64,000 nucleotides of DNA from a bacterium (GTDB lineage Bacteria; UBA9089; CG2-30-40-21; SBAY01). A program made the translations under genes and the position numbers. The DNA lies in NCBI GenBank assembly GCA_040755795.1, contig JBFLXS010000002.1:5109-69108 (forward strand). The letters run 5' to 3'. The notes under the pieces were generated by a model. The model did not search any database. It was not told the origin of the DNA and worked only from the letters and a program-made list of their open reading frames with translations. Positions within the stretch are counted from its first letter, which is position 1. Each line of letters begins with the position of its first letter. This document shows positions 1-64,000 of this stretch, one piece after another.

Positions 1-1
1 T

Positions 2-3000
2 TTTGTTAAGGGGATTAATTCTAATAATAGTGATACGAGATACTTTGTGATTAATCGGGGCATAACAGTATTTAGTCCTGCGGTTGGTAGTGTAGGGACG
101 CTTGTAACTATAGAGGGTTGTGGATATACTCCATCAGAGGAGATAGTTGTTGGATTTGGAGAAAATCCTGTCATTGCTACGACTACTGTTTTAAATGATG
201 GTGTATTTGAGATCTCATTTACCGTTGATACACAACCGGTTGGTGCAAAGGTAGTTACTATAAAAGGTTCTATTACTCCAGGGACGATAACACAGTCGTT
301 CCAAATTGTAGGGAATATAACCTTAGTTAGTCCTGCGTCAGCGACAATTGGGACTATTGTTACGGTTAAAGGAGATGGATACGGAGTAACTGAGCTTATT
401 AGAATCCATTTTGGACAAACTCGCAACATTAATATTACCTATAGTGATTATAGAGGGGTTTTCATCACGACATTTACCGTTGATACGCAAACATACGGAA
501 GTAAGACAGTAATTGCGGCAAGTGGAGGTCAAGAGATTAGCAGATACTTTACAATTATTGGTAGAGTTTGGCAGGTGTCACCTACAAGTGGGAGTGTAGG
601 GACAATTATAACTATCTGGGGTGATGGATATAGTGAGAACGAGAAGATAGGAGTTTATTTTGGGAAAGGAACTTCCTCGCAATATTTCGTTGGCACAACT
701 ACGGCGGCATCTACTCTATACGGTGGAACATTCTCAACGACATTTACAATAACTACCCAACCTGTAGGAACGACAACGGTTATTGCTAAAGGTGCGGGTG
801 CTTCATATCAAGAAACCTTGAATTTTGTAGCCATAATAGGTAATATTATCCTTATTTCACCTCCACAAGGAACCGTAGGCTCACGCGTTACGGTAGCGGG
901 TAATGGATATGGAATACAGGAACGAGTATTTATTGATTTTGGCACGACTAATACTATTATGGTTACTACTACTGATAATATCGGGTCATTTACTACTTTC
1001 TTTACTATTGATACACAAATTTATGGAACGACAACGGTGGTTGCAACAGGTAAAGAATCCGGACAAATATCCACAGACCCATTTGTGATTATTCCAGAAA
1101 TTACTCTTATTTCACCAACAAAGGGTCCTGCCTGGACAATCGTTTCAGTAACCGGTAATGGTTATGGTAACTCAGAACTTGTGAGAATAAGTTTTGGGAC
1201 AACGGTGACGATTGCTCTTACTTCTTCTAATTATCGTGGTGAATTTGAGACCACATTTAGCGTGGATACGCAACTTTATTATAAGAATACTATTGTCGCT
1301 ACAGGTATCTTCACCGGGCAGGCAAGTGTTAAACAAGGAGTGTTCTTTGTTACCCCAAGAATTGTTTTAGTAACTCCTGATCGTGGTTCTGTTGGTTGTA
1401 TGCTGACAGTTATTGGTAATGGTTATTCAAGTAATGAGACAGTAAAACTATTTTTGGGTATCTTTGACTATCGCTATCAAGGGATGGGTGGGACACCTAT
1501 TAGTACTTGTGTCGCAACTAATTTTGGCACCTTCTCAACTACCTTTACAATTGATATAGAACCAGCAGGAACAAAATCTGTTACTTCACGGGGTGGGTCA
1601 TCGGCTGCAACTTCTACTTATGATATCTTTATTGTAGGTGAAATTACTTTGGTTTCTCCTTCACAAGCGACTGTGGGAACAATAATTACCGTGAGAGGTA
1701 ATGGTTTTGATGCCAGTGAGCTTATCCAGATTGATTTTGGAACATTCCTAACCATAACTACGGTGACGACAAATATCAGAGGGACTTTTACCACGACATT
1801 TACCATTGATACACAACCTGCCGGAAGCACTACTGTGCGGGCAACTGGATTAAGAATGGGGCTGGTGAGTGAAAAGACATTGTTCATTTATGGAAATATT
1901 ATTAAAGTTACACCTACTTCGGGTTCATTAGGGACTATTATCACCGTTGTCGGCGATGGATTTGGCAGGACGGAGACGATTTATATTGATTTTGGAACCA
2001 GTAGAACTGTGGGGATTGGTTTGACTAATAGTCTGGGGACATTCTCAACTACATTTACCGTAGATATTCAGCCTTATGGTCGAACAACGATTAAAGCAAC
2101 AGGCTCTGAGACGACTTTAGTCGCATTAGGGTCATTTACGATTACAGGTCGGGTAACGGTTGTTTCACCTTCACAAGGTTCGGTTGGTAGTATAGTTACT
2201 GTAGAAGGCACAGGATATGGTGTCAGTGAGTTAATTGGTATAGATTTTGGTACACATCCGACCATTACTATTACCTCATCTGATTGGAATGGTCAATTTA
2301 GAACCACATTTACTATCGATACCCAGATTGCCGCTACAAAGACGGTTGTGGCGAGAGATAAGAATACTTCCGCCGCAAACTTCTTTGCAGTTAGAGGTGA
2401 TGTAACCCGTATCTGGTATGATAGTGGTCCAGTGGGAACTGTGGTTACTGTATGGGGTAATGGTTATGGTGCGACTGAGGATATATTTGTCCAGTTTGGT
2501 ACGACACTTACTATTACTACTTCTACCTCCAATGGCATTGGTGAATTTATTGCTAATTTCACGGTTGATGAGCAGGCAGTTGCTTCTGTTACTGTAACTG
2601 TAAGAGGGATTCCTTCAGAAGAAAAGGCGATTACACACTTTCTTATCAGGCCAGGTATTTCCATGCTTGTTCCAACTGAAGGAACCGTCGGAACAATCAT
2701 TAATATAGAAGGAAAAGGATATGATCCTATAGAACCTATTCAAATCGTTTTTGGACAGACACAAACCATTACTACCACTACCACAGATGGAGTAGGAAGA
2801 TTTTTGACTACCTTTATCATTGATACCCAGGTTTATGGGACAACTTCGGTTACACCTATTGGACTTGATTCAGGCAAACAGGATACAAGATATATCTTTA
2901 TCTTCCAGGAAATTGCTGTGGTAAGTCCAGATGGGGGGACAGTAGGGACTATTGTTAGTATTGTTGGCACAGGATTTTATGCCACAGAACTTATTCAGAT

Positions 3001-6000
3001 TGATTTTGGCACGACAAAGACTATTACTAAAGTAACGACAGAACCAAATGGTAGATTCAGTACTACCTTTACTATTGATACCCAGATTGTGGGCACAACT
3101 ACTATTAAAGTTACGGGTATGACATCTCAGTTAATCTCTACACGAACATTTACGATTATTCCACAAATCCATACAGTTACATCAAATATTGGGACAGTGG
3201 GAACAATTATTACCATTTGTGGAGATGGTTATAGTCCGATTTCAAACATTCAAGTTGACTTTGGCAGACACAATACTATTACTACTGTTACCACGACCGA
3301 TGTAGGAACATTTGCAGTAACATTTACGATAAATACTCAACCTAATGGTAGCACGACCATAACGGCAACAGATGCAAAAGGTAACTTTGCCATTAATAAA
3401 TTCGATATTATCCCGGATATTATCCTTTCTACCCCAACGATTGGCACAGTGGGAACGATTGTTACATTAGAGGCAACCGGATATGGCGATTCAGAACTCG
3501 TTAGAATTACCTTTGGTGAAAATGTTACTATTCATACGACCAATGCTAATACCGAAGGGTCTTTCTCGGTTACCTTTACCATTGATACCCAACCAGCAGG
3601 CACTACGACTATTAGACTTACCGGCACAACCATTGATAGAATGGATTCAAGTCTATTTAATATCATTTCAGATATTATCATCTTTACACCTACTCAAGGA
3701 ACCGTAGGCACAATTGTTACCCTGGAAGGGACAGGTTATGGTATTACTGAACCAATCACTGTTCACTTTGGCACAACACCTACTATTGTTACCGTAGAAA
3801 CAAATAGATGGGGAACATTTACCACCACATTTACTATTGATACTCAACCTTATGGTTGGACAACTATTGTCGTTAAGGGTGAGGAGACTAAGTTGTCAAA
3901 TACAATGAATTTCTTGATTACAGAGGTAATTGAATCGATTACGCCTACACAAGGTTCTGTAGGGACAATAGTAACAATTATCGGTAATGGATTTGATGCC
4001 ACAGATAATATATATATTAAGTTTGGAACTAAAGATAATATAGCTTCTTACAAGACGGATGCAGGTGGTAGATTTACCGGCACCTTTACCATAAATACAC
4101 AGCCAGCAGGGACTACGACTATTAGAGCAACAGAATCAGATGGTCCAAAACAGGCTTATGCCTATTACTTTATTACCGGCAGGATAATTTATATTAACCC
4201 ATTAGAAGGTGTCATAGGGACAATTGTGACTGTCAAGGGTAATGGTTATGGGGCAAGTGAGGTCATTCAAATTGATTTTGGCACAACCTACACTATAACT
4301 TCAACGGTATCTAGTAACATTGGAACATTTAATGTTACCTTTACCGTTGATACCCAACCTTGTGGCACTACGACTATTAAAGCTACTGGGATGAATACCC
4401 AGGAGGTTGATACCGGGACATTTACGATTAAAGCCGGTATTGCGATTGTTTCGCCTACCTTTGGAACTGTAGGGACAGAGGTATTGGTAGAAGGTAGAGG
4501 TTATGAGGCGACAGAGCAGATAGGTATTCAATTTGGCACAAATGGAACTATTACTTATGCTACTACTAATGATAAGGGTGTCTTTGTGGGGACATTTACC
4601 GTTGATACGCAACCTTACGGGTCAACAACTATTTTAGCTACCGGCCTTACATCTGGTTTATCAGATAAGTTTATTTTCAAGATAAAAGGGAATATCATTG
4701 ACATCACTCCTGCAACTGGAACTATTGGTACTAATGTGGTAGTGAAAGGTAATGGTTTTGGGTCAAGTGAGACGATTAAATTCAAACAGGGAAGTGTTCT
4801 ATTATCTCAGATAACTAATACTTTGATAGATGGTAGTTTTGTAGGCACAATTACCATTATTACTCAGATAGAGGGCGCCAGGATAATTGAGGCAAAAGGT
4901 CTGAATACCAATGAGAGGGCTACATCTACCTTTGTTATCATTGCCAATATTACTCAAGTTACACCTACATCAGGAACTGTCGGTAGTTTTGTTACGATTA
5001 AGGGTGATGGATATGGCAATGGTGAGCGGATAGAGATTAACTTTGGGACTACGCCAACGATTATCTTTGTTAGTAGTTCAACTGCGGGAACATTCTCAAT
5101 TAAATTTACAATTGATACCCAATCTTATGGCACAACTACCATAGTAGCGGCAGGTATTGCTTCTGGTGAAAGTGCTCAAAGTGCCTTCCGAATTACTGAA
5201 GAGATAATTCTCATAACTCCTATTTCAGGGACCGTCGGAAGTATAGTTACTGTGGCAGGTAATGGCTATGGTGCTACAGAGAGAATTCAGATTGACTTTG
5301 GAAAAACAAGCAGTATTATGTTCACGACAACAGATGCCTATGGTTCATGGACAACTACCTTTACCGTTGATACGCAGGTTTATTGCAATAAGACAGTATC
5401 TGCCAGTGGACGGACTACCCCGACAAGGGATACGGTTATATTCTGTATTACGCCAAAGATTATTATTACACCTACTATTGGCACAGTAGGGATTTCGGTG
5501 ACCGTAAACGGGAATGGTTATGATGCGGTTGAATATATTGGTATTTATCAGAGAGAGACTTTAGTTCATACCTCTGGTAATCCGACTTCAAATGATGGGA
5601 CATTTACTACGGTCTTTATTATGACTAATCAGCCGATAGCAACTACGACTATAAAGGCAGTAGGACTTACAGATCCATTACAATCAGCCACAGATTTATT
5701 CTTCATCATACCTCATATCCGGCAGTATGCCCCGCTTGAAGGAACTATTGGAACAATGGTTACAATAGACGGAACAGGCTATGGAGCAAATGAATTAGTC
5801 CGAATAGATTTTGGGACGACACAATCAATTACTACTAAAGAGGCATCTGCAGACGGTCAGCTAAATGTTACCTTTACAGTTGATACCCAGCCCTATAGTA
5901 CCAAGACTATTACCGCAGAGGGAACTATTTATCACCTAAAGGATGAAGTTACCTTCAAACTAAAATCCCGTATTTGGTCAATTACCCCTGTTTCCGGGAC

Positions 6001-9000
6001 AGTAGGAACGATAGTAGAGGTAAATGGAGATGGATTTAGTGCTACAGAACTTATCCAAATTGATTTTGGTCAACATAGGACTATAACCACAGTAACCACA
6101 AATGAGATTGGGACATTTACGGTTACCTTTACGGTAGATACTCAGGTTTGTGGTGCAAAATCTGTTGTAGCCACCGGACTTAGTTCACAACAAATAGGTA
6201 CATCTACCTTTAATATTATTGCCGATATTATTCTTGTTTCACCAACTGAAGGAACGGTGGGAGCTCAAGTAGAGATACGCGGGACAGGTTATGATGCAAA
6301 CGAAGAGATAGAGGTTAGATTTGGTCAGACTGCTCCAATTTCAATTGAGCCTTTAGGCATATCCACTTCACCTGATGGGACATTTACTGCCTTCTTTAAT
6401 GTTGATACCCAGCCAGCAGGTGTAACAACCATAGTGGTTAGAGGTTATGATGGTTTACCATCGGCTGATGGAACATTTACTATCAAGGCAGTTATTACCG
6501 GTGTTGCACCGCGTAGTGGGTCTGTTGGGACAATAGTTACCATTCAAGGTGGTGGGTATCAACAAATAGAGGGAATTAGAATCGACTTTGGTTCAACGCA
6601 AACTATTGCTACGACTATGACTGATGGTAATGGTTCATTTACCGTTACCTTTACCGTCGATACCCAACCAACAGGTAGAACAACAATTACTGCCACTGGC
6701 TTAAATGGTGGAGCACCTGCTTATGATACATTCTCTATTACTGGTAATATAACTCAAGTTACTCCGAATACAGGTTCTGTTGGCACAATAGTTAGTGTTT
6801 ATGGAGATGGTTTTGGTCAGACAGAATTGATTCAGATTGACTTTGGAAAGACAATGACTATCGGGATGGTATCGACTAATGTTAATGGTACCTTTGGAAC
6901 GACATTTACCATTGATTCACAACATTGTGGAGTAAAGACAATTGTTGCTATTGGGATGATGAGTGAACAAAGAGGGACTATTACCTTCACGGTTACCCAA
7001 AGAATTACATCTATCTCACCGACAATTGGGACAGTAGGAACACAGGTAACCCTGATTGGTAATGGCTATGGTTCTCAAGAGAATTTGACTATTCGATTTG
7101 GTAATGCGACACCTATTATAAATCAAGGACCAACAAGTATAGATGGGACATGGACTATTTACTTTACAGTTGATACCCAGTATATTGGAATAAAGAATGT
7201 TACGGTGGAAGGACAAGCAACTGGAGTTTCTGATACCAGACAATTTAGAATTATACCTAATCTATATCTGGTAACACCGAATACAGGAACAGTAGGAACT
7301 CAAATTACGGTGAAAGGAAATGGTTATAACCCAACAGAATTTGTTCAGATTGATTTCGGGACATCTCTGGATATGGTAAATAATCCACAGCCAAAGACAG
7401 ATGCTGTAGGTAGTTGGACAACTACATTTATTATTAGTACCCAGCCTTATGGAGCAACTACTGTTAAAGCAACAGGTGTAGTCAGTGGAGAAAAAGCGGA
7501 TAATTTAACCTTCTTTATCTTACCAAATGTAGTTTTAGTTACACCAGCTCATGCTACGGTGGGGACTTTAATTACGGTTAGAGGTAATGGTTATGGGGCA
7601 TCCAGGACAATTCGGATAGAGTTTGGAACAACACAAACAATTCAATGGACATCTACCTATGCTGAAGGAAGTTTCACTACTACCTTTACCCTTGACACCC
7701 AACCTTATGGCAAGACAACCATTGTTGCCCATGAAGATGATATTTCTATTGAGGCTTACGGCACATTAAGTATTCAACCTAACATTGTTTCAGTTACACC
7801 TACGGAAGGAACGGTAGGGACAATAATCACTATTCGCGGAAATGGTTATGGTATAACTAAGACCTTGAGGATAGAATTTGGCACTACTAATAATATAAGA
7901 AATGTTATTAGTGATATAGAAGGAAGTTTCACGACAACATTTACGATTGATACCCAGCCGTATGGAACAACAACTATATTTGCACATCAAGATGATATTT
8001 CAATTAAGGCGACCGCAACACTGCGTATCTTACCTAATATCATCCTTATTTCGCCAAATTCAGGGACAGTAGGTCTGGTGATTACCGTTAAAGGTAATGG
8101 TTATAGTGCTACGCGAGCTATCCGAATAGAATTTGGCACGACACCTACCATTGTTATGGCATCGACCTATGCGGCAGGTATGTTTGAAACAACATTCACT
8201 ATTAATACCCAACCTTATGGTGTAACGACGATTATTGCTCATCAGGATATTACTCCACGACTTAAGGCGTATGGGACATTTGCTATTGAATCTAATATTA
8301 TCTTGATAAGTCCAAAAGAGGGGACAGTAGGAACGATAATTACGGTTGCTGGTAATGGATTTGTTGCCTCTCATACTATTAAACTTGATTTTGGTATAAC
8401 AACGACTATTCAAACAACATCGACTTATGCTCATGGCAGTTGGACGACGACATTTACCATTAATACACAACCTTATGGCATTACCACAATTAAGGCTTAT
8501 GGTAGTGAAGAGGCAGAAGGGACATTTACTATCCTGCCAAATATTATACTTGTAACTCCAGATGCGGCTACAGTGGGAACGGTAATTACTGTGGCAGGTA
8601 ATGGATTTGGTGCATCAAAGACTATCAGGATAGAATTTGGCACGACTCAGACAATTCAATTGACCTCTACCTATGCCGAAGGGAGTTTTTCAACGACATT
8701 TACTGTTGATACTCAACCTTACGGTAGGACTACGGTTACAGCCCATGATGATGACAATGTGATAGCGGCAACCAGTAGTGTTACGATTAAACCAGAAATA
8801 ATTCTGATTCAACCAGAAAAAGGCACTATCGGAACAACGGTTACCGTCAAAGGTAATGGTTATGGAGCGCACGAGATAGTCCAACTCGTGTTTGGCACCG
8901 CACCTACTCGTGATGTTGATACAACAGAAGGAGTAGGGTCATTTACATTTACCTTTACCGTAGATAGACAAACATTAGGGACAACGACTATTATTGTGAG

Positions 9001-12000
9001 GGGAATAAATACAGGTCAAAGCGTCCTTAAATATCACTTCCGTATAATTCCACATCTAACTGCGGTAATTCCAACTATTGGTTCAGTAGGGACAGTCGTT
9101 TTATTAAAGGGTGATGGTTATTTACAGAATGAGTTGGTGAGGATAGAATTTGGAACAACCAGAACTATAACTACAGTGACTGCAGATATAGATGGATTGT
9201 TTGAAACTACCTTTACTATTGATACGCAACCTTATGCTACAACTACTGTTAAGGGTGTGGTTGTTAGAACAGATGACTTCGCAGATAATCTGACTGTATT
9301 TATTACGCCTCGGATTATTCTTATTACTCCACCTGAAGGCTCAGTAGGGCAGATAATTACGGTTAGAGGTAATGGTTATCCTGCATCAAGCACTATTCGG
9401 ATAGAATTTGGCACAACACGGACAATTCATACCGTCTCGACCTATGCTGAAGGTAGCTTCACCACTACCTGGACAATAGATACCCAGCCTTATGGCACAA
9501 CAACACTTATTGCCCATGAGGATACTAATGCCATTAGTGATATAGGTAGTGTTACTATATTAGCTAACCTCTTTGCAGTTATTCCACCATCTGCACCAGT
9601 AGATACGGTAATTACTATTCGAGGTAATGGATATAGTGCAACGGAGCGTATCCAGATTGACTTTGGTTTAACAAAGAGTATCACCTTTGTTACTACTGAA
9701 TCTGTTGGTTCCTGGACGACTATCTTTACGGTTGATACCCAGAAAGTAGGAATAACCACTATTAAGGCTACGGGATTGAGTTCCGGACAGGTAGCCATTA
9801 ACTTCCTGACCATTACTCCAAGAATCTATCAAGTTACACCTGATTCAGGGACAGTAGGTTTGATAATTACCATTTCTGGTAATGGTTATGATGCCAGTCA
9901 ACTAATTCAGATTGACTTTGGCACAACACGAACAATTATGACCGTTACCGCTTCCGATGGAGGGTCGTTCACCACTACCTTTACCATTGATACTCAGCCT
10001 GCAGGTGTAACTACGATTGCGGCTCTTGGCGTAGGGTTAGCAGGACGCAGTGAGAAATACTTCACTATCCATTGCCGAATTATCCTGGTAACGCCATTAG
10101 AAGGAACCGTAGGCAGTTTTGTGACCGTGGCAGGTAATGGTTATGGTGCTAATGAAAAGGTTGATATTGTCTTTGGCACATCAGGCACTCTTACTACCAC
10201 CTCAACGGATAATATCGGTTCATTTACTACTACATTTACCATTGATACCCAGCCAGCAGGTAGGACGACGATTGCGGCAAGAGGGATGAGCACAAATGAG
10301 TTAGATAAAGCGACTTACACTATCCATAGCCGCATCATTTTGGTAACGCCGAAAGATGGGACAGTGGGTAGTTTGGTTACGGTGGCTGGTAATGGTTATG
10401 GTGCGGTTGAAGGAATAGATATTCTATTTGGGACATATGTCGGAACGATTACGGTTACCACTACGGATGCCACCGGGTCATTCACTACTACCTTTACTAT
10501 TGATACGCAACATTCAGGCACGACAAGTATTACCGCAGTAGGTAGAAGGACGGGTGAGCAGGCAGAAGATATTTACAGAATTCATGCTAATATCATATTG
10601 GTAACACCAACTTCAGGCACGGTAGGAACGATAATTACGGTAGCAGGTAATGGCTATGGTTGGTCAACCGAGACGATAACTATTCACTTTGGCACAACGG
10701 AGACTATTACCCAGGTAGTTTGTGAACAAAATGGTTCCTGGACCACTACCTGGACAATTGATACTCAACCAGCAGGTATGACTACGATTACCGCCATAGG
10801 TTATAAGACTCAAGAAATAGCACAGGCAACGATTACCATTCATGCTAATATCATTTTGATAACCCCACTTGAAGGCACAGTAGGTAGTTTGGTGACGGTG
10901 GCTGGTAATGGTTATGGTGCGATTGAAGGAATAGATATTACCTTTGGGACTTATGTGGGCACAATTGCGGTTACAACTACGGATGTAATTGGGTCATTTA
11001 CCGTAACATTTACTATTGATACGCAACATTCAGGAATAACGACGATTGGCGCCAGAGGTGTGAGAACAGATGAATATGATGATGGAACATACACTATTCA
11101 TGCACATATTATTACAGTTACTCTAACCAGTGGAACAGTAGGTAGTATTGTTACGGTTGCGGGTAATGGCTATGGTAATAGTGAACGGATAGAGGTAGTA
11201 TTTGGCACGAATAAGACCATTACGACTACTTCGACAGATGTCACCGGGTCATTTACCACAATATTCACTATTGATACACAGATTGCAGGCACAACAACCA
11301 TTAAAGCTGTGGGAATATCTACCAGTGAAACCGATGATGACATCTACCATATCCATGCTAATATTATCATAGTTTCACCTGATAGAGGAACAGTCGGAAC
11401 AATTATTACCGTAGCGGGTAATGGTTATGGTAAGCAGGAAGGAGTAAATATTGCCTTTGGAACAAATCCAACCATTGCCTGGACGACTACGGATACGATT
11501 GGTTCATGGACGACAACATTTACGGTTGATGTTCAACCTGCAGGTAGAACGACAATTGTTGCCACCGGGGTAGCTACAGCTGAAATCGCGGAGATAGGAT
11601 TTATCATTGGTTCAAAGATAACTGATGTCAGTCCGAATGTTGGGACAGTTGGATTGGTTATTGAGGTGAAAGGTTCAGGTTATATTGCCAGTGAATATAT
11701 TCGGATAGATTTTGGAACAACCAGAACGATTGTGATGACTAAAGCAGATGGGGCAGGGTACTTCTCGACCACATTCACGATTGATACTCAACCTGCGGGT
11801 AAGACAACGATTAAGGCAGAAGGATTACAACAGACTGTTGAGCCACCAATATCTACCTTTGAGATAAAGGCAAATATTATTAAGATAACATCAACTAAAG
11901 GCTCAGTAGGGAGCATAGTTACAGTTGCAGGAAATGGCTATGGTGCCAGTGAGCTAATCCAGATTGACTTTGGGACTACGCGAACTATTGTTACTATCTC

Positions 12001-21000: not shown

Positions 21001-22090
21001 TACGATTGATACCCAATCTTATGGGCAAAAGACTGTTACAGCTGTAGGCTTGAAGATAGGGCAGGCATCAAGCGTTATCTTTAATATTCTACCACAATTA
21101 GTTAGTATTTCACCAACTGAAGGTTCGGTTGGCAGGATAGTAACATTATTTGGAACAGGATATAAGACCCAGGAACAGGTGCAAATAGACTTTGGCACAA
21201 CGATGACTATTACCAAAGGACAGACATCAATTGATGGCACATTTAGCGTTACCTTTACCATTGATACTCAACCTTATGGCACAACTACGATTACGGGAAT
21301 AGGTAGAGATAGTGGAGCATCATCTACGATTACCTTCCGTATCTTGCCTAATATTGCCTGGATAACACCCACGCAAGGTAGTGTCGGAACGATAGTTACA
21401 ATTTATGGTAATGGATACAGGACGGCAGAATCCATTAAGGTTAGTTTTGGTAAGGATAGTACAGTGCAGATGACCACTACGGACTCTACTGGTAGCTGGA
21501 CAACTACCTTTACCGTAACAACACAAGTTGCTGGAACAACGACTATTACTGCCACCAATGTAGCGGACGATTTGACCTCACAATCATTCTTTGATATTTT
21601 TGCAAATATTACTGAAGTAGCTCCTCCCGACGGTATGTTAGGAGATGAGGTAACTGTAAGGGGTAATGGTTATGCGGCAAAAGAACAAATTAGAATCAGT
21701 TTTGGGACAACTATAACCCGAGTGGTGGTTACTTCTACACCAGATGGGACATGGACAGCGACATTTACAGTAGATGAGCAAAGATGTGGACCGACTACTA
21801 TTGTGGCGACTGGTTTGGGAAGTGGTGAATCCGCAACTAATACTACATTTGTTGTAGGAGTAAAAATTACCTCTGTATCTCCTGAAGTTGGAACAGTAGG
21901 AACAATTGTTATGGTGCATGGAGCTGGGTTTGGTTCTAGTGAAAGTATCCGCATTGAATTTGGCAATAATCGAACTATTGCTATGGTTACTACTAATGTC
22001 GCAGGAACATTTATTGCTACCTTTACTGTGGATACTCAATCTGCTGGGACTCATACTATTATAGCCACTAATGGCGTAGAGGCTAAAGCA
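2..22090 (+). repeat. About 88 tandem, mutually diverged 83-85 aa IPT/TIG-like units (coding tandem repeat, low nucleotide identity between neighbours). Local subfamilies are visible, e.g. the 'IHANIILVTP...VAGNGYG' units at 10.07-13.45 kb and the 'RIEFGTTxTIQ(W/L)TSTYAEGS' units at 7.5-9.5 kb.
   Basis: Hand translation. Every unit shows the recurrent motifs ...(V/I)(T/S)P-x-x-GTVGT-I-V-T-V-x-G-(N/D)-G-(Y/F)-G..., I-(D/E)-F-G-T-T, and T-F-T-(I/V)-D-T-Q-P-x-G-T-T-T-I. Confidence 0.85.
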
Positions 22091-55000: not shown

Positions 55001-58000
55001 ATACTACCAGAGTTATGGTCAGTGGTGCTTGCTGAAGGGACAGTAGGAACAATTGTTACAGTCCGAGGCACAGGCTATGCGGCGAATGAGTTGGTCTATA
55101 TCCACTTTGGCACAACTAACACGATAACGACAACATCTGCAGATATAGAAGGTAGCTTCACCACAACATTTACTATTGATACACAACCTTATGGTTCTAC
55201 AACCATAACAGCGTTAGGTTTGAGTTCAGACAAGGCAATAAATGACTTCAAGATACTGCCAGAGTTATGGTCAGTGGTGCTTGCTGAAGGGACAGTAGGA
55301 ACAATTGTTACAATCCGAGGCACAGGCTATGCGGCACAGGAATTAATTTACATCCACTTTGGGACAACAAATACAATCACGACGACCTCAGTCGCAATTG
55401 AAGGTAGTTTCACAACAACATTTACTATTGATACACAACCTTATGGTTCAACGACAATCACTGCGGTAGGTCTGAGTTCAGGTAATGCGATAAATAACTT
55501 CAAGATACTGCCAGAATTATGGTCAGTGGTGTTAGCCGAAGGGACAGTAGGGACAGTAGTGACGATACGAGGCACAGGTTATGCGGCGAATGAATTAATT
55601 TACATTCACTTTGGGACAACAAATACAATTACGACGACCTCAGCCGCAATTGAAGGTAGTTTCACAACGACATTTACTATTGATACACAGCCTTATGGTT
55701 CGACGACGATAACAGCAGTCGGCTTGAATTCAGGTAGTGCGATAAATTACTTCAAGATACTGCCAGAGTTATGGTCAGTGGTGTTAGCCGAAGGGACAGT
55801 GGGGACAGTAGTGACGATACGAGGCACCGGTTATGCGGCGAATGAGTTAATTTACATTCACTTTGGCACAACTAACACGATAACAACAACATCTGCAGAT
55901 GGACAGGGTAGCTGGACAACTACATTTACCATAGATACTCAACGCTATGGTTCAACAACCATTACTGCCGTAGGTTTGAGTTCTTCATCTGCTATTAATT
56001 ACTACAAGATAACTCCTGATTTATGGTATGTAAGTCCAACGCAAGGAACGGTTGGAACAATTGTTACCATTAGAGGCACGGGTTACTCAGTTGGTGATGT
56101 CCGAATAGACTTTGGAACGACAAGAACTATCACCACTACACAGGCGGTTGCAGAAGGTAGTTTCACCACTACATTTACTGTGAATATTCAACCTGTAGGC
56201 AAGACGACTATTGCCGCAGTGGGCATTAATGGCGAAGGAAATATTAACTTCTTTACCATCACAGGTGGAATTAGAATATCACCTACCACTGGGACAGTAG
56301 GAATAGTAGTAACGGTGTTTGGTAATGGATATGCTTCAACAGAGCAGGTGAGGGTTGATTTTGGCACCACTCCTACCCTGTCAATAGTTACAGCGGAGCC
56401 AGTAGGGACATTTATTGCTATGTTCACTGTTACCACTCAACCTTATGGCACGACAACGGTTACGGCTACTGGACCAATAACAGGGTCTGCGATAGACTTC
56501 TTTGTCATTACACCTGAATTATTTAGTGTTATACCAAATGCAGGGACAGTAGGTAGCATAGTAATAATTCGAGGCACAGGTTATGCGGCGAATGAGAGAG
56601 TTTATATCCACTTTGGGACAACTAATACGATAACTACTACATCTTCAGACATAGAAGGAAGCTGGACAACAACATTTACTATAGATACACAACCTTACGG
56701 TTCTACAACCATAATAGCGTTAGGCTTGAGTTCAGGTTCAGCTATTAACTATTGCAAGATACTGCCAGAGTTATGGTCAGTAGTGCTTGCGGAAGGGACA
56801 GTAGGGACAATCGTCACAATCCGAGGCACAGGCTATACGGCGAATGAGTTAGTTTATATTCACTTTGGCACAACTAATACGATAACCACTACATCTGCAG
56901 ATATAGAGGGTAGCTGGACAACTACATTTACTATAGATACTCAACCTTATGGTTCTACAACGATAACCGCCATAGGGTTAAGTTCGGGTTCAGCCATAAA
57001 TGACTTCAAGATACTGCCTGAATTATGGTTCGTCAATCCAGCAGAAGGAACAGTAGGCAAGATAGTGATGATAAGAGGAACAGGCTATGCGGCGAATGAG
57101 GCAGTTTATATCCACTTTGGCACAACAAAGACGATAACAATGGTATCTTCAGTTATTGAAGGTAGTTTCACAACAACATTTACCATAGATACACAACCTT
57201 ATGGCACAACGACCATTGTTGCCTCAGGATTGAATTCAGGAGAGGCGATTAATTACTTCAGAGTCCTGCCGGAGGTATTCAGTGTTACTCCGAAAGAAGG
57301 CACAGTGGGAACAATAGTTACTATTCGTGGGACAGGATATGGTGCAAATAAGATAATTAATGTTCACTTTGGAACAACAAATACTATTACTACGGCGAGT
57401 TCAGATATAATTGGTTCATTTACCGCAACATTTACTGTGGATACGCAACCTTATGGCACAACAACTATTGTTGCTACAGGTTGTTCGGCAATTAACTACT
57501 TCAAGATATTACCAGATGTTTGCTATGTTACGCCTACATCAGGGACTGTGGGAAGTATTGTGACGGTTCGTGGAACAGGCTATGCGGCTTCAGAAGAGGT
57601 CTATGTCCATTTTGGCACAACAAAGACGATTACAACTACGGTTTCTGCTCAAGAAGGTAGCTTCACCACGACATTTACTGTGGATACACAAGTTTATGGC
57701 ACAACAACAATTATTGCGGTAGGATTAGGTTCAGGAGAGGCGATTAATTATTATAGGATAACTCCTGATTTGTGGTATGTCAATCCACAACAAGGCACAG
57801 TAGGAACAATTGTTACGATTAAAGGCACAGGTTATACCCCTGGTGAGGTGCGAATAGACTTTGGCACAACTCAAACTATTACTACTACTCAGGCAGATAA
57901 TACAGGTAGTTTGACGACGACATTTACCATAGATACGCAACCATTAGGTATAACAACTATTGCGGCAGCTGGTGCTAATGCTGAAAGAAATATTAACTTC

Positions 58001-61000
58001 TTCACGATTACTGGTGGTATTAGAATATCGCCAACTACGGGTTCAGTAGGAACGATAGTAACCGTGTTTGGTAATGGTTATGCGGCAACAGAACAAGTCC
58101 GTGTTGATTTTGGGACAACACCAACATTAGCCATAACAACAACTGATAATATAGGTTCATTTACGGTAACCTTTACCGTAACGACACAACCTTATGGAAC
58201 AACAACTATCATTGTTACCGGAGCAGAGGCAGGTTCTGTCTGCATTACCTTCTTCATCACGCCAGATGTATTTATGGTTAGTCCAGATACAGGAACAGTG
58301 GGAACAGTAATTACTATTCGTGGGACAGGTTATGCTGGGAGAGAAGATGTTTATATCCACTTTGGCACAACGCAGACGATTACCATTACTACTTCAGCTA
58401 TTGAAGGCAGTTTCACGACGACATTTACCATTGATACACAGCCGTATGGTAGCACGACCATTACGGGATTAGGCTTAAATTCCAGTTCAGCTATTAATTA
58501 CTTTAAGATTATACCGCAGATTATTCAGGTTACACCAGATACAGGAACAGTTGGAACAATAATTACGATTCGTGGGACAGGATATGGAAATGGCGAAGAT
58601 GTCTTCATCCACTTCGGCACGACACAAACGATTACCAGGACTATTACCGATATAGAAGGCAGCTGGACTACAACATTTACTATTGATACACAACCGTATG
58701 GGACGACGACAATTACTTCTGTGGGAGAGACTACACCGCAGGCGATTAATTACTTTAAGATTACACCAGAAATAATTAGGGTTACGCCAACTCAAGGCAC
58801 AGTGGGAACAATAGTAACAATTCGTGGGACAGGTTATGCCGGGACAGAAGAAGTCTATATCCACTTTGGCACAACGAAGACGATTACGACTACGGTTTCA
58901 GATATCGCTGGTAGCTGGACAACAACATTTACGATTGACCCACAGGCTTATGGCTCAACAACCATTACTGCGCTTGGATTACGGTCAGATTCAAATATTG
59001 CTTACTTCAAAGTGTTAGGCGAATTATACTTAGTTTCACCGAAGGAAGGGACCGTGGGGACGATAGTAACCATTAGTGGAACAGGATATCAATCCAGTGA
59101 GACTGTCCAGATAAGTTTTGGCAACAAGACGACGATAACTACAGGTCATGTAATAGACACAGGCGTCTTTATCCTTACATTTACAATTGATACGCAGGTT
59201 TATGGGTCAACAACAATTATTGCCACTGGTCTCTCATCAGCCATAGAAGGTATTAATTACTTTAAGATAATACCAGATGTAATTATGGTGAGTCCATCAA
59301 TTGGGACTGTGGGGACAATCGTTACCATTCGTGGGACTGGTTATGCCGGATTAGAAGAGTTGTATGTCCATTTTGGCACGACAAAGACAATTACTACAAC
59401 GACTTCAGATATGGAAGGTAGCTGGACAACAACATTTACTATTGATACACAACCGTATGGTTCAACAACAATTACCGTGTTAGGATTTGGTTCTGGAGAG
59501 GATATTTCCTACTTTAAGATAACACCTCAAATTTGGGATGTTACACCGACTTCAGCGACAGTAGGAACAATAATTACCATTCGTGGCACAGGTTATGCCG
59601 GGACAGAGGAGATTTATATCCACTTTGGCACGAATAAGACGATTACTACTACTGTTTCTGCCATAGAAGGAAGTTGCACAACAACATTTACCATTGATAC
59701 ACAACCTTATGGCACGACAACGATTCTCGCAGGAGGCTTGAAGTCTGATGAGGCAATTAATTACCTGAAGATAACTCCACAATTAGTTTCAGTAACACCA
59801 ACAGAGGGAACAATAGGAACACTAATAACTATTTGTGGAACAGGTTATGCCAGCAGTGAGACAGTTTATATCCACTTTGGGATACGCAATACTATTACCA
59901 CTACTGTTTCAGGCATCGAAGGAAGTGTGACAACTACCTTTACCATTGATACTCAACCTTATGGAACGACAACTGTGGTAGCATTAGGCTTGAAGTCCGC
60001 AGTTGCCATTAATTACTTTAAGATATTACCGGCATTGTTTATGGTCAGTCCAACAGAAGGGACTGTGGGCACAATAGTAACAATAAGAGGTAATGGTTAT
60101 ATTGGGACAGAAGAGATTTATATCCACTTTGGCACAACAAGGACGATTGCCACGGTTATCTCAGAGCTACAGGGAAGCTTTACCACAACATTTACAGTGG
60201 ATACACAACCTTATGGGTCAACAACTATCACAGGCGTTGGTAGTTGTGGTGAGTCAATTAACTACTTTAAGATTACACCAGAGTTGTGGTTTGTAACTCC
60301 AACAAAAGGAACAATAGGAACAATTCTAACTATTCGTGGAACTGGTTATACGCCAGGTGAGGTGCGAATAGACTTTGGCACGACAGAATCTATCACCCTT
60401 ACTCAAGCAGAAATAGAGGGAAGTTTCACCACGACATTTACCGTAAATACACAAATATTAGGTAAGACAACAATTAGAGCCACAGGTATTAATCAGGAAA
60501 CCAATATTAACTATTTTGTGATTATTGGTGGAGTTGAGGTATCGCCGACATCTGGCACGGTTGGGTCAATAGTGACGGTATGTGGAACAGGATATGCGGC
60601 AAGTGAAGAGATAAGGATTAATTTTGGCACAACACCTTCAATTACGAAAGTTATCGCTACTGAAGCGGGAACATTTACCGTAACCTTTACCATTGATACA
60701 CAACCTTATGGCACCACCACCGTTAGAACGATAAGTTCAGATACAGGTTCAGCCACAACTTACTTTACCATTCTACCCGACCTGTGGCAAGTTAGTCCAT
60801 CAGAAGGCACAGTAGGAACAATAGTTACTATTCGTGGGACAGGTTATGCCTATCAAGAAACAGTTTCGATACATTTTGGAACAACATTTACCATTACCAC
60901 AGCTCAAGGTTCTAAACAAGGTAGCTGGACGACGAAATTCACAGTAGATATGCAACCTTGTGGTAGCACCACGATTACTGCCGTAGGTGATACATCAGGC

Positions 61001-64000
61001 ACGGCTATTAACTATTTTGTCATAAATCCAGAAATATACTCTGTAACTCCAACTCAAGGGACAGTTGGAACAATAGTTACCATTAAAGGTAGTGGTTACA
61101 GGCTAAGTGATGACATACAGATAGATTTCGGCACTACATTAACTATTATGGTTGCTTCTTCTAATGATGCAGGGACATTTACCGCTACCTTTACTATAGA
61201 TACTCAAGCCTACGGAACTACAACCATAACCGCCAAAGGTTCAGCAGTGGGAATAGCGGTGAATTACTTCAAGATAACTCCAGATGTATTTTTTGTTTCA
61301 CCAACAGAGGGCACCGTTGGGACAATAATTACTATTCGTGGTACAGGTTATGCCGGTGGTGAGACAGTAGATATTCATTTTGGCAGGGCTAAGACCATCA
61401 CCACAGCGTTAGTAGATGCACAGGGCACTTTCACTACTACCTTTACCATAGATACACAACCTTATGGAACAACTACAATTACGGGAGTTGGTCCCACCTC
61501 TTCGCAGGCAATTAATTACTTTAAGATATTATCAGAGATAGTTTCGGTTACTCCAACGGAAGGAACGGTAGGAACAATAGTTACTATCTGCGGAACTGGT
61601 TATAGAGATACAAAGAGAGTTTATATCCACTTTGGCACGACTAATACTATTACAACAACTACTTCAGATTATGAAGGTTCATTTACTACTACCTTTACCA
61701 TTGATACTCAACCTTATGGCACAACAACGATAATGGCAGTAGGGTCTCCACAGGCAATCAACTACTTCAAGATATTACCGGATGTTATCTTTGTCAGTCC
61801 AACATCAGGCACGGTTGGAACTATAGTTACTGTTCGTGGAACGGGTTATGCTGGCACAGAGGAAGTTTATATCCACTTTGGCACTACCAATACCATAACT
61901 ACTACCGTATCCGCTATACAGGGTAGTTGGACAACGACATTTACCATAGATACCCAATCTTATGGAACAACTACAATAATAGCCGTAGGATTAAAGTCAG
62001 GAGAGGATTATAATTACTTCTTTATAAATTCAATGACTTATCTAACTCCTTTACAGGGAACAGTAGGTCAGTTGGTAACCATAAGGGGTGAAGGTTATAA
62101 TGATGGAGAGACTATAGCTATACACTTTGGAGAGATTTTGACTATATGTACTGCACTGGTGGCTCAAGAAGGTTCATTTACGGCTATATTTACTGTTGAT
62201 ACTCAGATTTTTGGGACAAAGACAATAACCGTAGTAAGTGAGATTGAAACGAGAACTCATTTGTTTAAGATAAGAGGTGGAGTGATAGTATCGCCCAGAA
62301 GTGGAATAGTGGCGACACTTGTTACCCTGTATGGAACAGGATATGGAGCCAGTGAGCCAATCATCATAGGTTTTGGTGGTAATCCAACCATATCTTGTGC
62401 AACAACCTCTGATAATGGGACATTCTCAACGCAATTTATGGCTGATGTTCAGGTACCTGGTCCGGTGGTAATTACTGCCAGTGGTTTGATAACCGGTGAA
62501 GTAGCATCTACTACCTTTACGCTGGTCAGAATATTCTTAAATCCAAATGTTGGCTATGGACAAAAAGATGCAATTACTCTAATCTCAGGTAAAGGATTTA
62601 TGGAGGGAGCAACCGTAACTGCTAATTCTATTAAATTCAATGGTGCATTTACCGCACAACATCCCCCAATAACTATTCAACCAGGAGGTAATTTACCAAC
62701 AACTACTTTGACATTACCAGCGATGCCGTGGGGAACTTATACGGTTCATATGATAGTTTCAGGAGAGGAATTTGTATTTGCAGATAGTTATAGAGTTATA
62801 CCGCGGATTATAATGAATCCAGGTGCGGGTAGTGGTCAGACGGGTAATACAAGTACTATAACAGGTTCAGGATTCTATGGGACGACAGGTGGAACGACTA
62901 TACTAATGAATAGTATTAAGGTAGGTGGCAATCCGACTGAACATCCAGAAGTGGTTGTATCTGATGTGGGAACATTCTCAGTTACAGTTGCTCTGTCACA
63001 ACTTAACCAAGCAGGGGGTTATGCGGCAGATATTGTCCAGACTAAGGAAAATATAGGTTCATGGACATATAGATTTGAAAATGTCTATTATCGAACTTCA
63101 CCACCTCAGTTACGATGGACAGGAGAGTCTGGTTATACACAGGATGGACTTAATCCAGAAGAGGGTCTAAATACTACAATTTATACTTACCGTATAAGAT
63201 ATTACGATTTTGATAATGATGACCCATTACCTGGCTATCCAAAGGTGATTATTTATAAAGGTACTAATGTTTATGCTTCATTGACTATGACAAAGATAGA
63301 TAATTATCTACCGAGGTCAGCTCCACGATATGAAGTTCAAACAACCCTTCCAGATGGAATGTACTCCTATTATATTGTGGCGTATGATAAATGGGGAGCG
63401 CCAGCCAATGGTGTCTCAGGAGTATGGCGTGAGGGACCAAGAGTAGGACAATTCCCAACACTTAGATGGGTAGGCGCACCTGACTATATCAATACGGGTG
63501 TATCTCCAAAAGTTGGCTCTGAGGGAACGCTATTTAATTATCGGGTAGTGTATCGAGATTCAAGTAATCGGCCACCAGTATTTGGGACAAATAGCCCAAT
63601 AGTGATTATAGAAAAAGATGGATTACCCTATGCCACTTATACTCTGGGTACTATTTCCTTGCTGGGAGGAACTGCAACTCCTTATCGAGATGGTGTGATT
63701 TATGGTACTGAGACTTCTCTTCTGGTAAGAGGTTCATATACACATAGATTTAAAGTACAAATAGCCATAGGAACGGATACATTTATAGAAGCACAGGGAA
63801 CGCCAACATTAATCAATTCAGGACCGACAGTGGTAACCCTTCCATATCTTAGTTGGTTAGGAGCACTAGGATATACGGATGATGGCGTAGAACCCGATAT
63901 TGGACAGATAGGAGATATCTTTGAATTTAAGGTGAAATATACAGGTTCTACTGCACCTGAATTGATACGACTATATCTTATGAGTCAAAATGGAACAATT
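2..64000 (+). CDS. Internal fragment of a giant repetitive protein gene, partial at both ends, at least 21,333 codons in this window. It encodes tandem IPT/TIG-like Ig-fold domains (extender array) followed by a distinct distal domain module. Probably an extracellular or cell-surface fibrillar adhesin-like protein.
   Basis: Phase-2 reading frame on the + strand hand-translated with no stop codon. Checked in register at 68, 9983, 22022, 36485, 50051, 59942, 63842 and 63998 (all congruent to 2 mod 3). Every unit-length difference is a multiple of 3. The ORF track lists no phase-2 + strand ORF, as expected for a stop-free frame without an in-window terminus. Variation between units is mainly codon third positions and conservative substitutions. 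Neither start nor stop codon is in the window. Confidence 0.9.
22598..24601 (+). repeat. Higher-order repeat copy A (8 units) of the 22.1-28.1 kb block
   Basis: Begins with the PEIILISPKEG and QLTQVSPPQG marker units and ends with the ...GISFKGTVT unit. The next copy starts at 24602. Confidence 0.75.
24602..26359 (+). repeat. Higher-order repeat copy B (7 units)
   Basis: Same ordered succession of unit variants as copy A with one unit fewer. Nucleotide identity to A and C is visibly above 90%. Confidence 0.75.
26360..28140 (+). repeat. Higher-order repeat copy C (7 units). The last unit decays into the diverged units that follow.
   Basis: Same marker pair at 26360-26893. Carries a 3-aa in-frame insertion (HQDDDGLKVEG) in one unit. 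The array diverges after about 28140 (NIILITPTAGTVGRTITIAGNGFGATEKIQIDFG). Confidence 0.7.
28141..35340 (+). repeat. About 29 diverged IPT/TIG-like units, including atypical units with loop insertions (28.7-29.9 kb) and a degenerate unit at 30.84-31.0 kb
   Basis: Hand translation. Same motif skeleton, low inter-unit identity. Confidence 0.8.
35341..56000 (+). repeat. About 82 near-identical 252 bp / 84 aa units. Consensus ELWSVVLAEGTVGTIVTIRGTGYAANELVYIHFGTT(K/N)TITTTSAAIEGS(F/W)TTTFTIDTQPYGSTTITAVGL(N/S)SG(S/E)AINDFKILP. Includes embedded variant units and sub-HORs.
   Basis: Adjacent units, e.g. 38413-38664 vs 38665-38916, differ at only a handful of nucleotides. Antisense artefact ORFs (MPRIVTIVPTVPSASTTDHNSG...) recur with exactly 252-bp or 504-bp spacing (38251 and 38503; 39007 and 39259; 40239-end and 40743-end). 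Confidence 0.9.
56001..62040 (+). repeat. About 24 moderately diverged units related to the 35-56 kb family (..IRGTGYAG(T/L)EE(V/I)YIHFGTT(K/N)TITTTVS(D/A)IEGSWTTTFTIDTQPYG..), punctuated by 'ITPDLWYV(S/N)P..G.VRIDFG' and 'ITGGIRISPTTG..VFGNGYA.TEQVRVDFG' marker units
   Basis: Hand translation. Marker pairs at about 56010/56270, 57760/58020 and 60290/60520. Confidence 0.8.
62041..62527 (+). other. Two terminal, degenerate IPT/TIG-like units closing the extender array (INSMTYLTPLQGTVGQLVTIRGEGYNDGETIAIHFG... and RGGVIVSPRSGIVATLVTLYGTGYGASEPIIIGFGGNPTIS...)
   Basis: The motif skeleton is retained but strongly diverged. They are the last units carrying G-x-G-Y-x-x-x-E and F-T-V-D-T-Q-like motifs. 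Confidence 0.7.
62528..63091 (+). other. Two domains with a more classical IPT/TIG signature (RIFLNPNVGYGQKDAITLISGKGFMEGATVTANSIKFNG...YTVHMIVSGEEF and RIIMNPGAGSGQTGNTSTITGSGFYGTTGGTTILMNSIKVGGNPTEHPEVVVSDVGTFSVTV...)
   Basis: Pattern P-x-x-G-x-x-x-G-x-T-x-I-T-(L/I)-x-G-x-G-F ... (V/I)-K-(F/V)-(N/G)-G ... V-x-V, as in IPT/TIG/plexin-type Ig-like domains. Sequence family differs from the upstream array. Confidence 0.5.
63092..64000 (+). repeat. At least 3 copies (third truncated by the window) of a different repeat of about 120-130 aa: P-x-L-(R/S)-W-x-G-x-x-x-Y-x-x-x-G-(V/L)-x-P-x-x-G-x-x-x-T-x-(F/Y)-x-(Y/F)-(R/K)-(I/V)-x-Y-x-D...P ... (V/I)-x-(I/L)-x-x-x-G-x-x-Y-A. Unnamed beta-rich repeat, a candidate distal functional module.
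   Basis: Copy 1 at 63092-63451 (PPQLRWTGESGYTQDGLNPEEGLNTTIYTYRIRYYDFDNDDPLPGYPKVIIYKGTNVYASLTMT...). Copy 2 at 63452-63838 (FPTLRWVGAPDYINTGVSPKVGSEGTLFNYRVVYRDSSNRPPVFGTNSPIVIIEKDGLPYATYTLG...). Copy 3 from 63839 (LPYLSWLGALGYTDDGVEPDIGQIGDIFEFKVKYTGSTAPELIRLYL...). Confidence 0.6.

Follow-up and report, generated by a model that had tools for sequence, protein, structure and literature searches.

A stop-free 64-kb reading frame encoding a predicted stalk of 246 tandem IPT/TIG-like units in an uncultivated bacterium

The stretch of DNA described here, referred to as the window, comprises 64,000 nucleotides (nt) of contig JBFLXS010000002.1 (assembly GCA_040755795.1, positions 5,109 to 69,108) from a bacterium of the GTDB lineage UBA9089; CG2-30-40-21; SBAY01. 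A single open reading frame runs through the window, and its product consists of a long tandem array of one repeated unit followed by a short stretch of other modules. A preliminary description of the window had held that frame 2 of the forward strand is free of stops over all 64 kb, that the gene exceeds the window, that its product reaches at least 2 MDa and that it contains about 250 repeat units. Each of these statements was borne out. Translation from nt 2 gives no stop in 21,333 codons, the frame is open at both edges with the start and the stop lying outside, the portion of the product encoded in the window has a calculated mass of 2.245 MDa, and a hidden Markov model (HMM) of the unit, built from the window sequence, finds 246 matches scoring 38-122 bits. 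The description erred in treating the entire window as a uniform repeat, since nt 62489-64000 hold other modules in the same frame.

From the base composition of the window about 1,393 stops would be expected in this frame, and the probability of meeting none is about 1e-625. The remaining five frames contain 855-2,595 stops, and the longest open run in any of them is 555 nt. The GC content at codon positions 1, 2 and 3 is 41, 51 and 31%, respectively, a strongly periodic pattern, and the GC skew is positive along the entire window, in which no Rfam family was found on either strand. The product has an isoelectric point of 4.7 and is composed of 20.7% Thr, 11.5% Gly and 11.4% Ile, with 0.2% Cys and 0.8% His, and no hydrophobic run of 16 residues or more occurs in its 21,333 amino acids (aa). 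Judging from composition, an acidic, almost Cys-free product that has no transmembrane (TM)-like hydrophobic run would be typical of extracellular stalks.

The units of the array have a modal length of 84/85 aa (252/255 nt) and follow the consensus ..FKILPEIISVTPTEGTVGTIVTIRGTGYGANELIYIHFGTTKTITTTS...GSFTTTFTIDTQPYGSTTITAVG, as in the example peptide GTGYAANELVYIHFGTTK. The median protein identity is 46% between units and 54% between neighbours array-wide. Several glycines and the Gln of a 'DTQ' motif are invariant or nearly so, and the glycines, core residues and DTQ motif are kept even among units that are 40% identical. Conservation is uneven along the array, which can be divided into diverged portions and portions made up of two unit families, A and B (Table 1). 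In the family-A core, each seventh unit is a variant, and units seven positions apart are 92% identical at the protein level (median proportion of synonymous differences, pS, 0.32); protein identity in this core is 84-92% and DNA identity 80-95%. The longest exact self-repeat of the window, 186 nt at 24829 and 26587, lies in the family-B expansion. The array has grown by duplication of single units and of seven-unit blocks, and the copies have since drifted at synonymous sites while their protein sequence was held by selection.

Table 1. Features of the 64,000-nt window (positions in nt of the window unless marked aa).
Feature	Position	Strand	Description
Open reading frame, phase 2	2..64000	+	21,333 aa, open at both window edges
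Unit array	17..62488 (aa 6-20829)	+	246 tandem units of 81-105 aa, no gap >15 aa
Units 1-87	17..22312	+	Old diverged portion; ~40-54% local protein identity (identity matrix, clustering)
Units 88-110, family-B expansion	22313..28099	+	249-nt period, 7-unit blocks, offset-7 identity 81%
Units 111-138	28100..35338	+	Diverged; ~40-50% local identity
Units 139-176, family-A core	35339..44929	+	252-nt period; 7-unit higher-order repeat, 6x252 + 255 = 1,767 nt
Units 177-246, mixed	44930..62488	+	Tandem Repeats Finder (TRF), identity and cluster analysis
Units 177-182	within 44930..62488	+	Diverged
Units 183-188, family-B insert	46445..47944	+	Cluster analysis
Units 189-222, family A	47945..56473	+	Cluster analysis
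Units 223-246	up to 62488	+	Progressively diverged
Two IPT-like modules	62528..63097 (aa 20843-20934, 20935-21032)	+	Unmatched by unit HMM; distinct from array unit
Module C1, 'LRWTGE.GY..DG..P..G'	63098..63448	+	Complete; predicted Ig/FnIII-like β-sandwich
Module C2, 'LRWTGE.GY..DG..P..G'	63449..63835	+	Complete; predicted Ig/FnIII-like β-sandwich
Third LRWTG module, first 55 aa	63836..64000	+	Module HMM positions 2-37, E=1.9e-12

Selection on the array was assessed with the Nei-Gojobori method on codon-aligned units. The inter-unit ratio of non-synonymous to synonymous divergence (dN/dS) is 0.07-0.19 at every level of divergence, including pairs that are saturated at synonymous sites. Nearest-neighbour units have a median pS of 0.60 and a median proportion of non-synonymous differences (pN) of 0.21, while in the 90 pairs whose protein identity reaches 95% or more the medians are 0.286 for pS and 0.024 for pN, which corresponds to a dN/dS of 0.066. 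Units 152 (38621-38872) and 168 (42659-42910) encode the identical protein and still differ with a pS of 0.23. This pattern argues for selection at the protein level, because gene conversion would homogenise both classes of sites and neutral decay would strike both, and it indicates that the array is translated and under long-term purifying selection on the protein. The preliminary description had likewise claimed that substitutions are biased to synonymous positions and that the array is under purifying selection and is not a decaying satellite. The bias proved strong, as the closely related pairs illustrate, and the second claim is upheld by the dN/dS values, by a confidently modelled fold and by stop-free arrays in independent assemblies (see below). 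A further argument, that unit lengths differ by multiples of three, fared less well; all such differences are indeed whole codons, but this follows from the open frame and carries no independent evidential weight.

Two observations on the divergence of neighbouring units stand apart from this test. Protein identity exceeds 80% in 49 of the 245 adjacent pairs, and synonymous divergence among neighbouring units of the core (35339-44929) ranges from 9 to 77%. The pattern in the core may reflect selection against long identical DNA tracts, which would favour stability against recombination, in addition to constraint on the protein. The protein identity of neighbouring core units is well above the value of about 30-40% reported for adjacent tandem domains of mammals, a low identity proposed to limit misfolding.

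The fold of the unit was modelled with AlphaFold2 (AF2) from an alignment of 123 di-domains of the window. The model contains two tandem seven-stranded β-sandwiches and has a predicted local distance difference test score (pLDDT) of 96 and a predicted template modelling score (pTM) of 0.83. Foldseek searches of the PDB with this model retrieved the tandem immunoglobulin (Ig)-like shafts of SiiE and Bap, plexin IPT, the Lap extender, SGBP-B and TEP1, and the closest folds are stalks of giant adhesins (Lap, SiiE and an ice-binding adhesin). The predicted unit is a seven-stranded Ig-like β-sandwich superposable on IPT/TIG (E-set) structures. Pfam TIG (PF01833) is also the top sequence family, with 12 of the 123 di-domains matching at E≤0.01 (best 1.9e-7) and most units scoring nothing, and several homologues carry a precomputed PF01833 match or the NCBI name 'IPT/TIG domain-containing protein'. 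The best sequence match to a solved structure (E=0.02) is to residues 494-604 of cyclodextrin glucanotransferase (CGTase), the IPT-type domain D of that enzyme. Pfam searches with 1,000-aa pieces and with single di-domains returned scattered sub-threshold matches only, and NCBIfam gave no meaningful match to the unit. As modelled, the unit is a divergent IPT/TIG-type domain that has no curated model of its own.

All 123 rows of the di-domain alignment share the Gln of the DTQ motif, and its flanking Asp and Thr are highly conserved; an example is the DTQPYG of unit 213 (54164-54181). Strand order places the motif in the E-F loop, at the end of the sandwich where the conserved GTVGT and FG turns also lie, and it is therefore probably located at the junction to the next unit, where it may serve as an interface, a metal site or a cross-link. 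A Thr-Gln ester-bond domain was considered as a candidate because of matches to the Pfam 'TQ' family (PF18202) and because of the invariant Gln, and it was rejected: 4 of the 123 di-domains match (best E 5.9e-4), His amounts to 0.8% of residues and is not conserved array-wide, and no ester-bond adhesin appears among the fold matches listed. A cross-link of another kind is still conceivable.

The modules that follow the array are of two types. The first two are IPT-like, match Pfam TIG below its cutoff (E=0.0019) and are collinear with the corresponding part of two relatives, the protein P0065 and the metagenome contig L018. They are followed by modules named here for their LRWTG motif, the two complete copies of which are 117-129 aa long and belong to no curated family. 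The third copy is cut by the edge of the window, so the gene extends past nt 64000.

Relatives of the window protein were sought in several ways. A word-indexed protein search returned 20-28 proteins, all of them short partial fragments and many labelled Candidatus Desantisbacteria; the same search with the tail alone gave no match, and with the tail plus two units it gave repeat fragments only. The tail relatives P0065, P0029 and L018 surfaced only through an exhaustive profile search and local BLAST. For the unit, the exhaustive profile search matched 10,120 cluster representatives with E≤1e-3, of which 1,106 reached E≤1e-30, and the longest protein among the best 150 matches has 7,284 aa. 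Most close matches are fragments made up purely of units with nothing at either end, and they appear to be pieces of larger arrays that were split by assembly. No relatives were found in viral contigs. An exact 50-mer of the unique tail had no match in collections of genome and metagenome contigs, and these searches brought up no sister-strain copy of the locus. Among species-representative genomes, searched with an alignment of 31 units, contig JAHIZN010000456.1 (55.8 kb) carries at least 161 units in one consistent frame over the 41 kb examined, contigs of JASEHA01 carry 55 and 37 units, and JAHIZN010000457.1 carries 39. Identity of these arrays to the window is about 41%, and their longest exact repeats are 20-92 nt, a DNA self-similarity so low that short reads could assemble them. 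The protein P0010 is 76% identical to, and collinear with, aa 2526-2795 of the window product (nt 7577-8386), compared with 65% at the best paralogous position, which makes it likely that this protein is the positional orthologue in a related organism.

Several contigs of the family have features of their own. Contig L001 (Ca. Desantisbacteria PCSH01000146.1, 11.7 kb) has 42 units and three frame switches (at about 450-580, 2446 and 10100), which reflect either assembly or consensus errors in a short-read metagenome-assembled genome (MAG) or a decaying copy. In contig L013 (JACQXC010000180.1, at about 6498), P0010, the closest relative of the window protein, starts abruptly in the middle of a unit directly after in-frame stops and unrelated sequence; this may reflect truncation of the gene, an insertion or a chimeric join in the contig, and the MAG label Nitrospirae may be a binning error. 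Contig L002 (JACQYP010000063.1; 7994-9922, 10001-10651) contains a complete 642-aa paralogue with seven units and a signal peptide, which immediately precedes the start of a larger gene with an array. Further upstream are a 922-aa multi-pass membrane protein with faint similarity to DUF4350 and a pair of genes for a ResIII helicase and an N6_N4 methyltransferase. The best-scoring member of the family is P0029 (MEW6606183.1, 4,177 aa, partial), the N-terminal region of which is named '6-bladed beta-propeller' by NCBI. Two complete proteins with PKD domains and a C-terminal TM anchor, P0043 and P0063 (7,284 and 4,377 aa), were set aside as architectural guides, since the window unit model gives their units scores of just 7-25 bits.

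The relatives suggest how the window protein might be exported and anchored. Shorter relatives that are complete consist of a signal peptide, a head, units and a C-terminal sorting domain, and their heads include Beta_helix, FG-GAP, NosD-like and NHL propeller domains. Sec-type signal peptides occur at the start of P0023, P0013 and P0029, and the unit-bearing proteins P0047, P0085 and P0098 match CHU_C or Por_Secre_tail just above the Pfam cutoffs. In contig L018, the 3' end of a relative encodes 10 units, followed by 2 IPT-like and 13 LRWTG modules. The order is exactly that of the window tail, and aa 12-490 of that tail align with it at 34.6% identity (E 2e-59). The protein ends in '...ANGVYIYRMIVEYNDKREVKIGKIAVIR*', which resembles a C-terminal sorting domain (CTD). 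Directly downstream of this gene is a gene of the PorV/PorQ family (NF033709, 149 bits, cutoff 90), followed by genes for a response regulator and a GAF/HD-GYP protein. A PorV-like gene, CTD-like ends and an HD-GYP neighbour recur in contigs L004 and L014 and with six other unit-bearing proteins; in L004, the PorV/PorQ-family gene is upstream of the array (37% identity). No LPxTG motif was found close to the C-terminus. A repeats-in-toxin (RTX) adhesin exported by a type I secretion system (T1SS) was considered and rejected, as neither the 21,333 aa of the window nor the C-terminal 2,711 aa of L018 contain any RTX nonapeptide (GGxGxDxUx).

Genes for signalling of the cyclic dimeric GMP (c-di-GMP) type adjoin unit-bearing genes in two unrelated contigs (L018, 9545-11220; L014, 3258-4802). 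The protein in L014 has a response regulator-GGDEF-HD_5 organization, and its HD-GYP parts are 40% identical to those of L018. By analogy with other large adhesins, this arrangement hints at control by c-di-GMP.

Taken together, the window is probably an internal-to-3'-proximal piece of one giant gene for a secreted, fibrillar cell-surface protein that acts as an adhesin or tether. The fold model shows the 246 units as tandem, independently folding IPT/TIG-like β-sandwiches that would make up a single-chain stalk, and other Ig-like modules come after it as a short base. By comparison with the relatives, an N-terminal Sec signal peptide would direct the chain across the inner membrane, and a functional head of the β-propeller or β-helix type would be located at the far N-terminal end. 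Beyond the window, about ten further base modules would lead to a C-terminal sorting domain in the style of the type IX secretion system (T9SS), which a PorV/PorQ-type outer-membrane protein and its partners would use for export and for retention at the surface. Ig-like domains of SiiE and MpIBP measure about 3.3-4 nm each. From general domain dimensions, the stalk may be about 0.8-1 micrometre long, which is at least the length of a small cell, and it would project the head far from the surface.

Several points weigh against this interpretation. The signal peptide, head, CTD and gene neighbours are all taken from relatives that are 31-76% identical, and the CTD models that match L018 do so below their cutoffs (TIGR04183, 18.5 against 23; FlgD_ig, 22.6 against 27; CHU_C, 18.3 against 27). 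No adhesive or ligand-binding domain was seen in the window, and export of the T9SS type would involve a cargo of more than 2 MDa, which raises doubt. In P0029, LRWTG modules occur between unit arrays, indicating that domain order varies in the family; the window tail thus need not be near the C-terminus. The taxonomic labels of the relatives are mixed, being mostly Desantisbacteria from groundwater but also 'Nitrospirae', 'Cyanobacteriota' and 'bacterium'; the source may thus be a member of Candidatus Desantisbacteria or of a lineage close to it. Finally, the giant gene is read from assembled sequence only.

An alternative is that the gene encodes a real giant secreted repeat protein with a structural and not an adhesive function, such as a matrix, a sheath, a surface-layer (S-layer)-like fibre, a spacer or a shield of the 'Periscope' type, perhaps exported by a route other than the T9SS. 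The same units in shorter complete relatives bear distinct N-terminal heads, which fits a stalk that presents a head, and a purely structural role is unlikely. For Periscope proteins, the property of interest is the identity of the repeats (PMC9704523). In the window, identity among the core units is 84-92% at the protein level and 80-95% at the DNA level, neighbours array-wide have a median of 54%, and no exact DNA repeat exceeds 186 nt. The DNA identity of the units is well under the near-100% typical of Periscope repeats, and their synonymous divergence indicates old, stable copies.

It is also conceivable that the array is an assembly artefact, in which a shorter array was over-extended or chimerically concatenated and the true gene has fewer units or is in fact several genes. 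Tandem repeats are a classic source of misassembly, the family is mostly shattered into pieces of 0.5-6 kb in public short-read MAGs, and the Desantisbacteria contig L001 changes frame three times. Within the window, 97 distinct 127-mers and 37 distinct 150-mers recur, mainly in the two regions of seven-unit blocks. On the other hand, no 200-mer recurs and no exact repeat is longer than 186 nt, so all 246 units can be told apart and the array did not arise by collapse or concatenation of an identical repeat; even the pair of units with identical protein differs at 23% of synonymous sites. One frame that stays open through 64 kb is not expected from random concatenation, units 1-87 and 111-138, which make up about half of the array, have an inter-unit identity of only about 40% and are trivially assemblable, and stop-free arrays of this unit extending over 10-41 kb occur in independent assemblies. 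An artefact on this scale is improbable, and what persists is a slight chance that the unit count in the two regions of seven-unit blocks is wrong. That the window is a non-functional relic, either a recently inactivated pseudogene or a non-coding satellite open by chance, is scarcely credible: the gene's start and stop lie outside the window, all the evidence comes from DNA, L001 is frame-broken and the L013 array begins in mid-unit after stop codons, but the frame contains no stop where about 1,393 are expected, dN/dS is far below 1 at all levels of divergence, including synonymously saturated pairs, and units of 40% identity still share the glycines, the core residues and the DTQ motif.

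If the window is part of a giant surface-protein gene, a more ambitious proposal can be made, namely that the full gene encodes more than 30,000 aa, that it is the longest Ig-like homopolymer of a single domain type known in any prokaryote (at least 246 units, a domain count that would rival that of titin, and about a micrometre) and that it is exported by a T9SS-like CTD/PorV route outside the Bacteroidota. As a joint claim this is doubtful and is put forward tentatively. Were it true, a T9SS-like pathway would cope with a cargo more than three times the size of SprB, and a small-celled uncultivated bacterium would devote several percent of its genome to one tether, for example for episymbiotic or cell-cell attachment at a distance. 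T9SS-like export, if true, would also be relevant to how large a cargo that system can take and how widely it is distributed among lineages.

Apart from this proposal, the window provides a well-supported bacterial gene of more than 64 kb beyond the phyla from which most giant genes are known. The array offers a natural experiment on the persistence of repeats, as near-identical proteins stand next to each other, contrary to the usual rule of less than 40% identity between neighbours, while their DNA has drifted synonymously. Fragmentation of its arrays in short-read assemblies makes the family almost invisible in public data. Given that both the unit and the tail module lack curated models and that the unit search found so many cluster representatives, new profile models would improve the annotation of thousands of proteins.

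The characterized systems closest to the window protein include SprB of Flavobacterium johnsoniae and other giant adhesins exported by the T9SS (CHU_C / Por_Secre_tail proteins). These are likewise very large, repeat-rich surface filaments formed by a single chain, and the Sec signal, T9SS-type sorting domain and adjacent PorV/PorQ-family gene of this class are seen in the relatives of the window protein. SprB has about 6,500 aa, and the fragment in the window alone is more than three times larger. The unit and the tail module also belong to other families, for which Pfam and NCBIfam have no entry, the lineage lies outside the Bacteroidota, and the C-terminus of the window gene lies outside the window. 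LapA, SiiE of Salmonella and the ice-binding adhesin MpIBP of Marinomonas, which are RTX/T1SS adhesins, share the tandem Ig-like extenders. In contrast to these proteins, the window and the L018 C-terminus have no RTX nonapeptides, and the relatives use an N-terminal signal peptide and a CTD instead of a C-terminal T1SS signal. SiiE has about 53 copies and MpIBP about 120, compared with 246 in the window array. Titin shows no homology beyond the shared fold class; it is intracellular and mixes Ig and fibronectin type III (FnIII) domains, and its neighbouring domains are usually less than 40% identical, whereas 49 of the 245 neighbouring pairs of the window array exceed 80%.

With respect to the features that define fibrillar adhesin-like proteins (Monzon et al. 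2021, PMC8286594), the window encodes a predicted rod-like stalk of a repeated domain in its 246 Ig-like units, and the protein may be extracellular, as P0023, P0013 and P0029 have signal peptides and the window product is acidic and Cys-poor, the N-terminus of the window protein itself being outside the window. West-Roberts et al. 2023 (bioRxiv 10.1101/2023.11.21.568195) designate proteins of at least 10,000 aa as 'large' and those of at least 30,000 aa as 'giant', and the 21,333 stop-free codons of the window alone place its product above the first of these thresholds. The published giants resemble the window protein in being metagenome-derived, in coming from uncultivated lineages, in their inferred role at the surface or in attachment and in including a class of 'tandem-repeat scaffolds'. 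The giants of Omnitrophota are mostly multi-enzyme, multi-transmembrane mosaics with SecA-like domains, whereas the window protein is a pure Ig-like homopolymer without hydrophobic segments. Giants built on a single repeated domain have already been described (RCC1-type proteins, SwmB and titin), and predicted bacterial proteins of 85,804 and 147,155 aa have been reported (West-Roberts et al. 2023; Nielsen & Lui 2026, bioRxiv 10.64898/2026.06.07.730766). The window protein is far shorter than these and sets no size record, so its ranking among the largest known proteins in the preliminary description was overstated. In the 2026 long-read study, which assembled a corpus of 916 very long proteins, the highest copy numbers of a single Pfam domain in tandem-repeat scaffolds are 36-41 (bioRxiv 10.64898/2026.06.07.730766). 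The architecture is that of a fibrillar adhesin, scaled up, and thus of a type of giant protein already known; it is unusual for such a protein to be so pure a homopolymer and for neither of its module types to have a curated model, and 246 copies of one domain, against 36-41 in the published scaffolds, are exceptional.

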